A stretch of DNA of 26,196 nucleotides from a virus (IMGVR_UViG_2874945390_000006:1-26196), one strand, 5' to 3'; counted from the stretch's first letter, positions 1 to 26,196 are shown. Numbers and translations: made by a program. Notes: generated by a model from the sequence alone, not told the origin.

Positions 1-847
1 CTACGATAACCGCGCATTCAACATGGCTATCTGTTCGTCGTTCATGTCATCAATCCACATACCGTAAATTTCATACACCATTTGCGCAGTTTCATGCCCC
101 ATCTGGCTGGCTATAAATGCCGGGTTCGCTCCTGCCGTCAACAGCCAGCAGGCAAAAGTATGTCGCGTATGGTACGGATTACGGCGGCGAATACCAGCAC
201 GTTTTACTGCTGCATTCCATCTTGCACCCAAACTGCTTACCGAGTAATAAGGTTTCTGTTTTTCGTTACACACCCTGGGCATGAAAACAAAATGCAGTTT
301 TTGCTTTTCAGTTCTGCCGTACTCCCGATGATAAAAAGTGATTTCGCTTTTGCGATGATGCCCGGTCAGTTTGTATTGCACCTTCAGTGCTTCAAGAGCC
401 GGCTGCAGTAATGTTACCGTCCGGATCCCGGCATTTGTTTTTGGGGGACCGAACATATCAAGTATCGTCAGGTTTCTTCTGACATTCACAATTCCCTTCT
501 CGAAATCCACATCCTCCCACGCCAGAGCTGCCAGTTCCCCGTGACGAAGCCCGGAGTAAACGGCAAATTTCCACAAGTTTTGGCTCTGTCCTTTTTCACT
601 TTCCATTAATGCATTGAATTCTGTTTTAGATAACGGGTCAGGCTTTATTCTGTTTCGCTGTAATTTTTTTACTCCTTCAAATGGTTTGGTTGATATAAAT
701 CCCGACTGATACGCAAAACGTAACAACGAACAGAGCAGGGCGATATAGTTATCAACTGTGCGCACGGTTCTTCCTTTTTTGTTGGATCTTGGATTATCTA
801 GGTAAAGCGTTTCTCCATGCAGCAGTTCATTCCGGTAGTTTAAGATA
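1..847 (-). pseudogene. Phage tyrosine integrase (site-specific recombinase), C-terminal catalytic part present, 5' end cut by the IS911 left end
   Basis: Minus-strand ORF ending at stop codon 1-3; contains box I Arg (VYSGLRHGELAALAWEDVDF) and C-terminal HTRHTFACWLL...Y motifs of tyrosine recombinases. Reading frame runs into the IS911 inverted repeat at 848; the track's start at 873 is a GTG inside the IS. Only about 100 residues precede box I, so the N-terminal arm-binding region looks absent. Confidence 0.7.
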
Positions 848-919
848 TGAAGTGGCACACTGAATTTGGCCACCTGAACAGAGGTGATATGCTCACCTCA
901 GAACAACACAGGTGCTCCA

Positions 920-1222
920 ATGAAAAAAAGAAATTTTAGCGCAGAGTTTAAACGCGAATCCGCTCAACTGGTTGTTGACCAGAAATACACGGTGGCAGAT
1001 GCCGCCAAAGCTATGGATGTTGGCCTTTCCACAATGACAAGATGGGTCAAACAACTGCGTGATGAGCGTCAGGGCAAAACACCAAAAGCCTCTCCGATAA
1101 CACCAGAACAAATCGAAATACGTAAGCTGAGGAAAAAGCTACAACGCATTGAAATGGAGAATGAAATATTAAAAAAGGCTACCGCGCTCTTGATGTCAGA
1201 CTCCCTGAACAGTTCTCGATAA
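920..1222 (+). CDS. IS911 OrfA (HTH/leucine-zipper transposition regulator)
   Basis: ATG at 920 gives the 100-aa product [16 protein letters not shown]...[19 protein letters not shown]; the track ORF 884-1222 has 12 extra upstream codons. Confidence 0.85.
1171..1177 (+). other. IS911 programmed -1 ribosomal frameshift slippery heptamer A AAA AAG (produces OrfAB transposase)
   Basis: Sequence ATT AAA AAA GGC in the orfA frame; orfB lies in the -1 frame and is open across this site. Confidence 0.75.
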
Positions 1223-1248
1223 TCGGGAAACTCAGAGCGCATTATCCT

Positions 1249-2088
1249 GTGGTCACACTCTGCCAAGTGTTCGGGGTTCATCGCAGCAGCTACAGATACT
1301 GGAAAAACCGTCCTGAAAAACCAGACGGCAGACGGGCTGTATTACGCAGTCAGGTACTTGAGCTACATGGCATCAGCCATGGTTCGGCCGGAGCAAGAAG
1401 CATCGCCACAATGGCAACCCGGAGAGGCTACCAGATGGGACGCTGGCTTGCTGGCAGGCTCATGAAAGAGCTGGGGCTGGTCAGCTGTCAGCAGCCGACT
1501 CACCGGTATAAACGTGGTGGTCATGAACATGTTGCTATCCCTAACTACCTTGAAAGGCAGTTCGCCGTGACCGAGCCAAATCAGGTGTGGTGCGGTGATG
1601 TGACCTATATCTGGACGGGTAAGCGCTGGGCGTACCTCGCCGTTGTTCTCGACCTGTTCGCAAGAAAACCAGTGGGCTGGGCCATGTCGTTCTCGCCGGA
1701 CAGCAGGCTCACCATGAAAGCGCTGGAAATGGCATGGGAAACCCGTGGTAAGCCCGGCGGGGTGATGTTCCACAGCGATCAGGGCAGTCATTATACGAGC
1801 AGGCAGTTCCGGCAGTTATTGTGGCGATACCAGATCAGACAGAGTATGAGCCGGCGCGGAAACTGCTGGGATAACAGCCCAATGGAACGCTTCTTCAGGA
1901 GTCTGAAGAACGAATGGATGCCGGTGGTGGGTTACGTAAGCTTCAGCGAGGCAGCTCACGCCATAACGGACTATATCGTTGGATATTACAGCGCACTAAG
2001 ACCGCACGAATATAACGGTGGGTTACCCCCAAACGAATCGGAAAATCGATACTGGAAAAACTCTAACTCGGTGGCCAGTTTTTGTTGA
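1249..2088 (+). CDS. IS911 OrfB (DDE transposase catalytic part, expressed as OrfAB fusion)
   Basis: 279-aa ORF in the -1 frame relative to orfA with IS3-family integrase-like core (…[10 protein letters not shown]…[12 protein letters not shown]…). Confidence 0.85.
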
Positions 2089-24220: not shown

Positions 24221-24356
24221 AAGCCTGTCGTATTTACGCGAAATCACTGCAGGCGATGGATTTCAGCACCATCACTGATAAATCCTCATACAACGCCATT
24301 GAATGGTCCGTCTCTCCGGAAGGTTCTTCCTGATTTAATTTATCGCGAGAAAAACT

Positions 24357-25622
24357 ATGTCTGTAGTGATATCAGGTGCGCTGACTGATGGCGCAGGTAT
24401 CCCCATGTCCGGATACCATATTATTCTGAAATCCCGGGTAAACACCCCGGAAGTGGTGATGCACACTGTTGCTGATGTGATGACAGGAAACGATGGTGAA
24501 TACTGTTTCCATGCGCGGACTGGAAAATATGGTGTGTATCTGAAACAGGACTGGCGCAACGAGTACTGTGTTGGCGACATTGCTGTATACGACGACTCAA
24601 AGCCCGGCACGCTGAATGACTTTCTGATTGCTCCTGATGAGGGCGACCTGAAACCGGATGTCGTCAAACGCTTTGAGGAAATGGTGGCGCAGGCGCAGCA
24701 GAGCGCCGGGGCCGCAGCCGGAAACGCACGGCAGACGGCGCAGGATGTGGCGGCAGCCGCAGGTTATGCCCGCGCAGCAGAACAGGCCAAAAATGACATT
24801 GATGCTGCGCTGACCGGCACTCTGAAAACGGCTAACCATCTGTCTGAAATCGCAGCAGCAGGCGAAAAGGCACAACAGAAGTCCCGGGATAGTCTGGGGC
24901 TGAAAAGTGCAGCCACGATGGAAGCACAGAGCGACATTTACGACCGGACAAAAGGCCGTCTGGCGATACCCGGCGCATTCGGCTTTGGGCGTGCTTTTCT
25001 GTATGAAGATGTTATCCGTTTTGACGCTAAGGATGATTTCCTGGCCTGGGTAAGGAATGCGCTGCCAGGTGAATATTCCGTTGCTGCCCCCTACGACATC
25101 ATCATACCCGACGCACTGTTTGAAGGGGGGCTCAGCATCCGGTGGACTGATGCACGCCCTGAGACAAGGGAACCGCGGCGCAGAGCCAAATCCCTTACTT
25201 TTTACGGCATTAACGGCCCCATTTATCACGCCCGCTACCGGCTCTTATCTGGATTTCTGACTGACTGGGTGAAAATAAATATAACCACAGAAGATATTAT
25301 TTACAGAATCGTGGCGAGCTCTGTCCGCAACAGATGGGGAGACCCTGACATTGGCGGGCTGATTATTGCTGCGTACCAGGGAGAAGCTGACGGTGATAAA
25401 GACATCAGACTTGTCAGGGGGCGGTCATACAGAGGCTCACGACTGGGACCGGTGGGGATTTCAGCGCCCTGTACTCCCACCGGAACGCATATAGTATACC
25501 CACAATATTTCATTACGGGATGTTCAGAGCATTCATTACCGGGGTCATATTGCGCCCTGTCCGGGGTGCCGGATACATATGTCTCTGGCGCAATGCTTGG
25601 GCTTTTTATTCGCACATCGTGA
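24357..25622 (+). CDS. Side tail fibre protein with prophage tail-fibre N-terminal domain
   Basis: 421 aa; N-terminus MSVVISGALTDGAGIPMSGYHIILKSRVNTPEVV...VYDDSKPGTLNDFLIAPDEGDLKPDVV parallels the conserved N-terminal domain of E. coli prophage Stf proteins, followed by an Ala/Gln-rich coiled region and a distinct C-terminal domain. Confidence 0.65.
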   Translation: MSVVISGALTDGAGIPMSGYHIILKSRVNTPEVVMHTVADVMTGNDGEYCFHARTGKYGVYLKQDWRNEYCVGDIAVYDDSKPGTLNDFLIAPDEGDLKPDVVKRFEEMVAQAQQSAGAAAGNARQTAQDVAAAAGYARAAEQAKNDIDAALTGTLKTANHLSEIAAAGEKAQQKSRDSLGLKSAATMEAQSDIYDRTKGRLAIPGAFGFGRAFLYEDVIRFDAKDDFLAWVRNALPGEYSVAAPYDIIIPDALFEGGLSIRWTDARPETREPRRRAKSLTFYGINGPIYHARYRLLSGFLTDWVKINITTEDIIYRIVASSVRNRWGDPDIGGLIIAAYQGEADGDKDIRLVRGRSYRGSRLGPVGISAPCTPTGTHIVYPQYFITGCSEHSLPGSYCALSGVPDTYVSGAMLGLFIRTS

Positions 25623-25632
25623 GGAATGCACC

Positions 25633-26196
25633 GTGGAAATTAAAAAAATCATTAATCCCCGTTATACCGAAAGTGGCGCAGTAGACTGTGACGTTTTTTT
25701 TGACGACAGGGACCAGGCAGTCCCCTACACAGCCACCGCTGATGATGTCGCTTCGACGGGTCAGCAAATCTGGCAGGAACTGCAAAGCGGCAAATGGGGT
25801 GAGATAGCCCCATTCACTGTGACACCAGAAATGCTGGAAGCGGCCAGAGAGGCCAGACGTCAGGGAATTGAAGCATGGCGCACAGAACAGGAGGCGAAGC
25901 CGTTCACGTTTGAATGGAACGGTCGTATCTGGAATGCTGGCCCCAACTCACTGGGCCGCCTTTATCCGGTGGTAATGGCTGCGAAATCCGACATTGTACG
26001 GGACGTGATGACGTGGGGTGATGCCGATAATCAGCAGGTGAAACTGTCGATGCCGGAACTGGAAGAACTGGCGGCAGCAATGGCTCAGGCACAGGTTGAG
26101 CGCAATGACGAGATTTATCGCCGTCAGCGGGAGCTGAAGGAAGAGCTGAATAGTCTGAAGGATTTGAATTCGGTTAGGAATTTTATCGTGGAATAA
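25633..26196 (+). CDS. Putative tail fibre assembly/chaperone protein
   Basis: 188 aa from GTG 25633 (RBS GAGGAA 7 nt upstream); the track ORF starts earlier at 25579 and overlaps the fibre gene. Assigned by position directly downstream of the fibre gene; stop TAA at the last three bases of the window. Confidence 0.4.
   Translation: MEIKKIINPRYTESGAVDCDVFFDDRDQAVPYTATADDVASTGQQIWQELQSGKWGEIAPFTVTPEMLEAAREARRQGIEAWRTEQEAKPFTFEWNGRIWNAGPNSLGRLYPVVMAAKSDIVRDVMTWGDADNQQVKLSMPELEELAAAMAQAQVERNDEIYRRQRELKEELNSLKDLNSVRNFIVE

Follow-up and report, generated by a model that had tools for sequence, protein, structure and literature searches.

The window, meaning the whole stretch of 26,196 nucleotides analysed here, comes from the Shigella boydii record CP026836.1 and runs from the integrase gene adjoining ttcA to the last tail-fibre gene before sitDCBA-uspF, with ttcA, dbpA and zntB as its left neighbours and sitDCBA-uspF-ompN to its right. 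It carries a truncated integrase gene, a short lambdoid replication fragment, a contractile-tail late region and a block of fibre genes, together with four insertion sequences (IS), named here after annotated E. coli copies of 99.4-99.8% identity (Table 1). No tRNA genes were found in the window.

Table 1. Features of the window and of the att cores beyond its ends (L numbers designate loci of the genomes compared).
Feature	Position	Strand	Remarks
intR (Rac-type integrase), 3' 847 bp	1..847	-	5' 389 bp of the 1236-bp gene gone
IS911 (IS3 family)	848..2096	+	1249 bp; termini TGAAGTGG.../...CCACTTCA
Lambdoid early-region fragment, inverted	2097..4209	-	99.8% identity to ttcA-side prophages of VL40 and FDAARGOS_944
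DUF977 gene, first 34 codons	2097-2198	-	
DnaC-like ATPase	2213-2959	-	Pfam domains
YdaU/DUF1376 replication protein	2966-4165	-	Pfam domains
ydaT, last 32 bp	4178-4209	-	
IS600, copy 1	4210..5473	+	1264 bp; flanks ACC / CTC, no target duplication
Late region, part 1	5476..16779	+	Colinear with VL46 L002 14001-25305, 99.75% identity
Sheath	14152-15636	+	
Tube	15637-16083	+	
IS600, copy 2	16780..18043	-	Simple insertion, tape-measure codon 29
Late region, part 2	18044..20430	+	99.83% identity to VL46 L002 25303-27689
Tape-measure / lytic transglycosylase gene, remainder	to 19983	+	PF01464 SLT
Baseplate gene, first 151 codons	19980-20430	+	
ISSfl3-like IS66-family element	20431..23189	+	2759 bp; 11-bp inverted repeats GTAAGCGCCCC; tnpA, tnpB, broken tnpC
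Fibre block	23190..26196	+	94% identity to VL46; 96.7-98.6% to RMDEC465
Myovirus tail-fibre gene, 3' third	to 23795	+	
Tail-fibre assembly gene	23798-24343	+	10-bp deletion at 24209/24210
Lambda-Stf-like fibre gene with N-terminal domain	24357-25622	+	
DUF4376 gene	25573-26196	+	
att core copies, S. boydii	L019 3139 and L005 15841		26-bp perfect repeat; present in VL46 too

At the left end, the integrase remnant is 99.9% identical to intR of EIEC VL40 (L003 32515->31669), and its called product of 254 aa retains a PF00589 domain. IS911 lies between this truncated gene and the first 102 bp of a minus-strand DUF977 gene, with flanks ATA and ATC and hence no target duplication, and the first IS600 copy separates the last 32 bp of ydaT from a terL gene that lacks its first 333 bp. 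Both elements have intact ends, non-contiguous flanks and no duplication, and neither can be read as a simple insertion. The 2.1-kb replication fragment enclosed between them is inverted relative to the integrase and the late genes alike: its genes face intR in the window, whereas they face away from intR in the ttcA-side prophages of VL40 and FDAARGOS_944. A short-read contig of another isolate (L020) holds the IS911 end, the inverted fragment and the truncated terL together, so that the inversion is not a long-read misassembly, and at least one rearrangement beyond deletion is therefore required. The two IS600 copies differ from each other at 7 positions. The dinucleotide CT following the first copy (5474-5475), which is missing from all 14 intact terL genes compared, is unaccounted for by simple recombination between IS copies and counts against the best explanation given below.

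The late region proceeds from terL (without 111 codons) through genes for the portal, Mu-F head morphogenesis, DUF2213, cement and major capsid proteins to the head-tail genes, neck terminator, sheath, tube, two small genes and the first 85 bp of the tape-measure gene, with Pfam matches to Phage_portal_3, Phage_Mu_F and E217_gp27/28/31/32. Beginning at terL, its gene order and identity follow those of a contractile-tail module with a DUF3383/E217_gp31-type sheath as far as the first gene of the baseplate cluster, and they resume with the fibre genes; the genes for the baseplate plug, hub, spike, sheath initiator, J and DUF2612 proteins have been deleted, and the window's version is thus related by descent but incomplete. 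A megablast search of 50,697 phage records with the late region returned just terL fragments at 77-81% identity, and the best match of the sheath protein, to Pantoea phage PA-1, reaches 52% amino-acid identity; with matches this weak, no isolated phage is usable as a reference. Single-nucleotide indels at 8410, 12636 and 13698 all fall in homopolymers and are absent from short-read assemblies of the same locus, and the three apparent frameshifts in structural genes are probably homopolymer errors of the long-read record. Decay by point mutation was largely rejected on this ground, given that these indels make up three of the four frameshifts counted. The frameshifts that stand are the 10-bp deletion in the fibre assembly gene and a 5-bp duplication in tnpC of the IS66-family element. 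The second IS600 copy shows every mark of a simple insertion: a CTG duplication (16777-16779 and 18044-18046) brackets it, and the empty site is present once in VL46 (L002 25303-25305). It does not lie at a module boundary, and short-read contigs of other isolates (L011-L017, L020-L023) end in it.

The ISSfl3-like element retains its inverted repeats and three genes, but tnpC is frameshifted by a duplication of ACTGC (22537-22541) relative to an intact copy, and its 8-bp flanks, GGACAAGA and ATTGGTAC, form no duplication, so that it fails as a simple insertion. To its left the baseplate gene is cut after codon 151, and to its right a tail-fibre gene lacks about 265 codons. The sequence missing at this junction amounts to 5,081 bp (VL46 L002 27690-32770) and takes in the baseplate cluster together with two-thirds of the tail-fibre gene, counted from its 5' end; the junction is an internal 5.08-kb baseplate deletion and not a junction between phages. 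The IS66 element in the same baseplate gene of CP125938.1 (L040) was considered as an ancestral simple insertion and rejected, since it is a different member of the family that lies 31 bp beyond and is bracketed by an 8-bp duplication of its own, AAATATGA. From the fibre block onward the sequence is colinear with VL46 through sitDCBA, uspF, ompN and nifJ. The block itself resembles an ipaH3 prophage (up to 98.6%) more closely than it does VL46 (94%), which shows some exchange between co-resident prophages and, like the CT dinucleotide, counts against the best explanation given below.

The integration site is defined by a 26-bp att core, TTGTTCAGGTTGTATTGTTCTTTCTT, of which one copy is located just outside the left edge of the window, within the 5' end of ttcA, and the other beyond the right edge, between sitA and uspF. 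These direct repeats bound the element as expected of a prophage at the Rac (ttcA) site, and the remnant of an IntR-type tyrosine integrase gene adjoins attL. The sitDCBA genes lie within the phage-derived element, between the DUF4376 gene and the attR core, outside the window, which otherwise includes nearly all of the prophage. The two prophage ends that the window contains belong together as the cognate ends of a single Rac-site element, whose cores are 30,323 bp apart in CP026836.1 versus 48,363 bp in the corresponding prophage of EIEC VL46 (NZ_CM177010.1, about 2272482-2320844).

This VL46 prophage is the closest known counterpart of the element in site, 26-bp cores, intR and module order, with a late region that is colinear across the second IS600 copy and the IS66-family element, and with sitDCBA adjoining attR, followed by uspF-ompN-nifJ. 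Its genes are arranged as int-xis-recE-repressors-replication-Q region-tRNAs-lysis-terS-terL...sheath-tube-tape measure-baseplate-fibres-sitDCBA, with Mu-F between terminase and sheath/tube. In contrast to the window, it measures 48.4 kb, is near-intact with a single IS2, retains all lysis, terS and baseplate genes, and carries an HTH/DnaB-type replication module instead of the YdaU/DnaC-like one, as well as fibre genes that are just 94% identical. The late region, fibres and sit flank of CFSAN029787, RMDEC364 and RMDEC332 look as in VL46. Late region and fibre block likewise adjoin in four more EIEC prophages, which occupy two other sites, namely yfhH with ipaHb (VL40, O121 201805972) and pphA/yebW with ipaH3 (FDAARGOS_943, RMDEC465). 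These ipaH prophages share with the window a terS-to-DUF4376 late region at about 99.7% identity and a cargo slot just after DUF4376, but differ in site, in early region (LexA/DUF5906 or DnaB type) and in IS positions, and they carry an IpaH effector rather than sit.

With the next 4 kb, the window makes up an island of the kind known as PAI sit of Shigella/EIEC, a phage-derived island carrying sitABCD, which has been reported as unstable and subject to rearrangements, deletions and IS (Fisher et al. 2009, as summarised in PMC7545054), and for which a table of that review gives aspS/yecN as the insertion site. The att core sequence is shared with Rac of E. coli K-12, as confirmed in the present data. 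Rac also shares with the window the ttcA site, intR, ydaT/ydaU-type early genes and the state of a defective remnant. We know of no contractile-tail late genes or sit in Rac, nor, to our knowledge, has its decay been attributed to IS911, IS600 or IS66.

By comparison with VL46, every absent function can be assigned to a junction: the baseplate cluster is missing at the IS66-family element, and immunity, nin/Q, lysis, terS and the 5' end of terL at IS911 and the first IS600 copy. The element lacks what a functional prophage would need: its int is truncated and its terL is short of 111 codons, no xis, repressors, Q, holin/lysozyme or terS remain, an IS divides the tape-measure gene, seven baseplate and fibre genes have been deleted, and the tail-fibre assembly gene has lost 10 bp. 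A first-pass annotation had placed IS at three boundaries with truncated genes and no target duplication, had held that these were not simple insertions, and had explained the absent immunity, lysis, small terminase and baseplate genes by them; all of this is borne out, with IS911, the first IS600 copy and the IS66-family element now fixed to the base. Its broader view of a patchwork of at least three phage modules survives in part: a rearrangement beyond deletion is indeed needed, but most of the window is one Rac-site prophage. An intact relative with this module order and simple IS insertions would have spoken for a single decayed phage. VL46 provides the flanks, the att cores and the order, but only one of the four IS proves to be a simple insertion.

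Taken together, the window is likely a dead remnant of one prophage at the Rac site of the S. boydii chromosome, reduced by IS, and decay of a single sit-carrying prophage through four IS, with the flipped fragment derived from that same prophage, seems the best explanation, one that we hold with reasonable though not full confidence. The ancestor would have been a mosaic temperate phage in which a lambdoid early region was joined to E217-like contractile-tail late genes and to two fibre gene sets, with the sitABCD iron/manganese transporter as cargo next to attR. Four IS elements would then have inserted, of which the second IS600 copy just split the tape-measure gene, while the ISSfl3-like element is associated with the 5.08-kb internal deletion of baseplate genes. 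IS911 and the first IS600 copy would mark one inversion and one large deletion that together removed xis, recombination, immunity, nin/Q, lysis and terS, leaving the ydaU/dnaC-like fragment flipped. Such changes likely arose by recombination between two copies of the same IS, in which an inverted pair would yield inversion and a direct pair deletion leaving one copy without duplication, or else by intramolecular transposition. Whereas boundaries, deletions, inversion and site are shown by the sequence itself, the sequence of events and their mechanism are inferred. The resulting element is unable to excise, replicate, lyse or build virions, with sit still fixed in the chromosome. A search for simple-insertion precursors or shared junctions, in which 100-nt pieces of the six IS junctions were joined into a 600-nt concatenate and compared with 5,426 complete E. 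coli genomes, matched the IS ends alone and covered no whole junction.

The inverted fragment requires either an IS-associated inversion plus deletion or import from a second prophage, and the local route is favoured. According to the import reading, another lambdoid prophage, located elsewhere on the chromosome, donated the 2.1-kb fragment, and IS911xIS911 plus IS600xIS600 recombination swapped the interior of the Rac-site element in inverted orientation. The position of the fragment between two different IS elements without duplications would fit such an exchange, as would a replication type that differs from that of VL46, the one Rac-site sit prophage found intact. Among the relatives examined, none pairs this late module with YdaU-type replication genes, so that a shared origin of the flipped fragment and the late region is something we infer rather than observe. 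Breakpoints inside prophages have a precedent in the group, as one VL40 prophage is bordered by ttcA at the int end and by ipaHd-yecD-aspS at the fibre end, two regions that lie about 0.5 Mb apart on the E. coli K-12 map. The import is also no costlier, since the local route takes four IS insertions and two recombinations, at least as many events as a double exchange between two prophages. Against it, the outer ends and att cores are both cognate to a single Rac-site element, and the int fragment (99.9%) and the flipped fragment (99.8%) best match one and the same VL40 prophage, which is integrated with its int end at ttcA. Relatives usually have a YdaU-type early region at this locus, as in FDAARGOS_944 and, adjoining ycjZ, in S. 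flexneri; a YdaU-type partner is in any case unremarkable for a late module that occurs with at least four different early regions among relatives. When terS was traced through the called proteins of the collection in search of a reciprocal IS600 junction, its commonest allele was found in seven blocks of contigs >1 Mb but was not recorded in CP026836.1, which hints that the missing segment was lost rather than relocated. Two nested chromosomal inversions with donor end points just 2.1 kb apart would further be needed, and import from a second prophage is on balance unlikely, although it carries more weight than the other alternatives.

A fusion at the IS66-family element, bringing together a structural module and a fibre block from different phages, would agree with the absent 8-bp duplication, with the drop in identity to VL46 from 99.8% left of the element to 91-94% right of it, and with the Stf-N and DUF4376 genes being shared with lambda-like prophages. 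The first-pass annotation had likewise treated the two as separate phage modules, a view abandoned here given that they are contiguous in every intact relative examined, across three integration sites, with the baseplate cluster between them in VL46, VL40, O121 201805972, FDAARGOS_943 and RMDEC465. Moreover, the right flank is colinear into sit-uspF exactly as in VL46, the missing 5,081 bp are the exact interval between the break points there, and the lower fibre identity is ordinary allelic mosaicism, the block reaching 96.7-98.6% in RMDEC465 after the same late module; such a fusion is very improbable. Still less credence is given to an assembly artefact of a long-read genome rich in repeated IS copies. 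The three homopolymer indels show that the record contains base-level errors, but contigs assembled independently from short reads (L011-L017, L020-L023) break off in the same IS copies and at identical positions, and L020 keeps the IS911 end, the inverted fragment and terL together. An artefact is contradicted for the large-scale structure and applies only to the three homopolymer frameshifts.

Decay of one Rac-site prophage through four IS belongs to an already known kind of event in a known island, PAI sit, and is ordinary for Shigella, in which IS-driven deletion and rearrangement are the known mode of genome decay (PMC7373316). Its correct annotation is a single defective Rac-site prophage (PAI sit) with four IS rather than several prophages, and its significance beyond this is small. 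The locus nevertheless offers a clean example of IS immobilising a cargo prophage in Shigella, with excision, replication, lysis and assembly lost and sit kept, and EIEC VL46 provides a near-intact reference for the phage family. Across the prophages compared, the cargo always follows the Stf-N/DUF4376 genes, at least three integration sites are used, and the late module occurs with at least four early-region types. We tentatively propose, as a possibility somewhat short of likely, that the late region is a fossil of a never-isolated temperate lineage with lambdoid early genes and an E217-like contractile tail, which would have recombined with these early-region types and may have been a common vehicle for sitABCD and the chromosomal ipaH effectors in Shigella/EIEC. 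If so, a single phage family would have brought in most of the chromosomal virulence cargo of Shigella, and its intact members, VL46 among them, might be inducible even now.

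The window (positions 777555-803750 of CP026836.1, a 5.1-Mb chromosome named as a Shigella boydii record, PMC12817139) runs from the stop codon of the integrase gene to that of the DUF4376 gene. To its left lie ttcA, dbpA, ynaL and zntB, and to its right sitDCBA, uspF, ompN and nifJ, the last two split; in the chromosome, the Rac prophage site has these neighbours on its ttcA and uspF sides. A single copy of the Rac att core (26 bp, TTGTTCAGGTTGTATTGTTCTTTCTT) lies within the 5' end of ttcA, 75-100 bp from the left edge of the window, and a second one between sitA and uspF; 30,323 bp separate the two copies in CP026836.1, of which IS elements contribute 6,536 bp. 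To the right of the window and downstream of the prophage (L005, 16641-20708), ompN and nifJ (ydbK) are each called as two fragments, which could be additional pseudogenes or again homopolymer errors, and another IS3-family element lies beyond them.

Feature map of the window, with limits from junction reading and blastn against relatives
Feature	Position	Strand	Basis
intR, 3' 847 bp	1-847	-	junction reading and blastn
IS911	848-2096	+	junction reading and blastn
DUF977 (first 34 codons), DnaC-like ATPase, YdaU/DUF1376, last 32 bp of ydaT	2097-4209	-	
IS600 #1	4210-5473	+	junction reading and blastn
CT dinucleotide	5474-5475	.	
terL minus 111 codons, portal, Mu-F, capsid, neck, sheath, tube, first 85 bp of tape-measure gene	5476-16779	+	
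IS600 #2	16780-18043	-	junction reading and blastn
Remaining tape-measure gene, 151 codons of a baseplate gene	18044-20430	+	
ISSfl3-like IS66 element	20431-23189	+	junction reading and blastn
Tail-fibre gene 3' third, fibre assembly gene, Stf-N-type fibre gene, DUF4376	23190-26196	+	

The three IS boundaries described in the first-pass annotation are real, as IS911, IS600 #1 and the IS66 element all have complete ends and each lies between two truncated genes. The absence of target duplications there is likewise borne out by the flanking bases, ATA/ATC for IS911, ACC/CTC for IS600 #1 and GGACAAGA/ATTGGTAC for the IS66 element. IS600 #2 is a textbook simple insertion away from the module boundaries, with CTG duplicated on both sides, and its empty site, ...CATGCTGCCCTT..., is present in enteroinvasive E. 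coli (EIEC) strain VL46. In 5,426 complete E. coli genomes, none of the six IS junctions of the window was found. About ten other isolates have short-read contigs that break off in these IS copies at identical bases, indicating that the structure is fixed in a lineage and is no assembly accident.

Several further observations concern these junctions. The two bases CT, which separate IS600 #1 from the terL-homologous sequence, are absent in all 14 intact terL copies compared; these read ...GGAC|TGGCC. In GCA_003572455.1 and run SRR6760302, possibly a single isolate, IS600 #1 is gone together with the adjoining 124 bp on the left and CTC on the right, and ydaU is fused directly to the truncated terL with 1-nt microhomology (contigs L020 2030-2050 and L023 1-40; window 4086 | 5477), a further deletion, which took out IS600 #1 itself. 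In CP125938.1 (L040, 17290-20010), a different IS66-family element occupies the same baseplate gene, only 31 bp downstream of the IS66 junction of the window; it is a simple insertion, flanked by an 8-bp duplication, AAATATGA. A target preference may account for two independent IS66-family insertions so near each other.

The late genes are best understood by comparison with VL46, which carries a near-intact prophage with the same flanks, between the same pair of att cores, which in VL46 lie 48,363 bp from each other. Its order begins with intR, xisR, the recE region, a repressor pair, ydaT, replication genes, DUF977, the nin/Q region and four tRNAs, continues through holin, lysozyme, spanin, terS, terL, portal, Mu-F and head genes, and ends with sheath, tube, tape measure, seven baseplate genes, tail fibre, assembly protein, Stf-N, DUF4376 and sitDCBA. 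The late genes of the window are colinear with this prophage at 99.75% identity (5476-16779) and 99.83% identity (18044-20430), and colinearity resumes at 23190 and continues through sit, uspF, ompN and nifJ. The DNA lost at the IS66 element is exactly positions 27690-32770 of the VL46 locus (L002), 5,081 bp comprising the remainder of the baseplate gene, plug, hub, spike, sheath initiator, J/gp47, DUF2612 and 265 codons of the fibre gene, and the IS66 boundary is an internal deletion.

The block from terS to DUF4376 is also unbroken in four further EIEC prophages, at two other integration sites and with ipaHb or ipaH3, which indicates that the structural and fibre parts come from one phage. 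What was previously treated as two units, a Mu-F/sheath/tube module and a lambdoid fibre block, is thus a single late region. Stf-N and DUF4376 are indeed lambdoid in kind, the same pair following lom in a lambda-like prophage of VL40, but the joint is an old one, the phage's own and not made by an IS.

The replication fragment is the part of the window that departs from the canonical arrangement. The int fragment (99.9%) and the replication fragment (99.8%) are nearly identical to one VL40 prophage whose int end lies at ttcA. In VL40, FDAARGOS_944, VL46 and S. flexneri, the replication genes point away from int, in the late-gene direction, whereas they are flipped in the window; only 2097-4209 is inverted, and the outer parts are canonical relative to ttcA and sit-uspF. 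The short-read contig L020 of GCA_003572455.1 passes from an IS911 end through the flipped fragment directly into the truncated terL, so the inversion is real, and the arrangement cannot be produced by deletions alone. The YdaU/DUF1376 gene within the fragment (2966-4165, minus strand) is one 399-codon open reading frame; in the 99.8% identical DNA of VL40 and FDAARGOS_944, PGAP calls two partial YdaU pseudogene pieces with about 380 bp between them unannotated. This difference suggests an unusual insertion into the usual architecture of the family.

The simplest local routes would combine one inversion with one deletion. An inverted IS911 pair in intR and DUF977 could have recombined, after which a direct IS600 pair in ydaT and terL would have deleted the intervening DNA; in the mirror route, inversion via IS600 would be followed by an IS911-associated deletion. 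Either would leave a single IS per junction without duplication, as observed. Alternatively, a second lambdoid prophage could have supplied the flipped fragment by double exchange, with an equal number of events. Such an exchange has a precedent in the VL40 prophage (L003 and L024, NZ_CM177011.1 2289235-2342000), whose int side adjoins ttcA and whose fibre side adjoins ipaHd-dinI-yecD-aspS. The ttcA and yecD-aspS regions lie far apart in E. coli K-12, and these flanks imply that the chromosome was rearranged, with one break point lying within a prophage.

In none of the relatives examined do the YdaU-type module and this late module occur together. The local route is nevertheless favoured because both ends and both att cores are cognate, because this locus usually carries an early region of the YdaU type, because the late module is seen with no fewer than four early-region types, making a YdaU partner unremarkable, and because the common terS allele, traced through the protein collection, has no record elsewhere in CP026836.1. 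On balance, a single-prophage explanation of the window appears probable, and import from a second prophage unlikely.

Smaller lesions fall into two groups. Three 1-nt indels (8410, 12636 and 13698) cause frameshifts in the Mu-F, DUF4054 and neck-terminator genes; each falls within a homopolymer run (C4/C5, G6/G7 and T7/T6), and all are missing from VL46 and from short-read assemblies with the same IS junctions. They are probably long-read assembly errors in CP026836.1 and not decay. Two other lesions lie outside homopolymers and look real: the fibre assembly gene has lost 10 bp at 24209/24210, and tnpC of the IS66 element contains a tandem duplication of 5 bp (ACTGC, 22537-22541). With tnpC broken by the duplication, this ISSfl3-like copy is itself dead.

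Since int is truncated and xis is absent, the prophage remnant is unable to excise. It is equally incapable of phage regulation and replication, cell lysis, DNA packaging and tail assembly, and most plausibly the only part still functional is sit, the cargo immediately beyond the window. Shigella genomes, in which deletions and rearrangements are driven by IS elements, have five dominant IS elements, IS911 and IS600 among them (PMC7373316), and the sit island has been reported to be unstable, with rearrangements, deletions and IS (PMC7545054); the decayed state of the remnant matches both patterns. IS-mediated deletion and rearrangement did occur, as the first-pass annotation proposed, but its reading of the locus as at least three phage modules, and not one decayed phage, does not find support. 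The window is a known kind of element in a known island.

The slot directly after Stf-N/DUF4376 holds sitDCBA in VL46 and in the genome of the window, ipaHb in VL40 and O121, and ipaH3 in FDAARGOS_943 and RMDEC465; in the lambda-like prophage of VL40, it holds ipaHd. Among these EIEC relatives, the late module occupies three integration sites and is paired with four or more types of early region. A megablast search of a 50,697-record collection found no isolated phage close to the late module (5476-20430), only terL fragments at 77-81% identity, and the best sheath match among isolated phages is Pantoea phage PA-1, at 52% amino-acid identity. The one mildly novel aspect is this phage family itself: in the assembly collection, by contrast, 1,310 blocks contain a protein of the late module, and the module bears sit or ipaH at several places in the chromosome.
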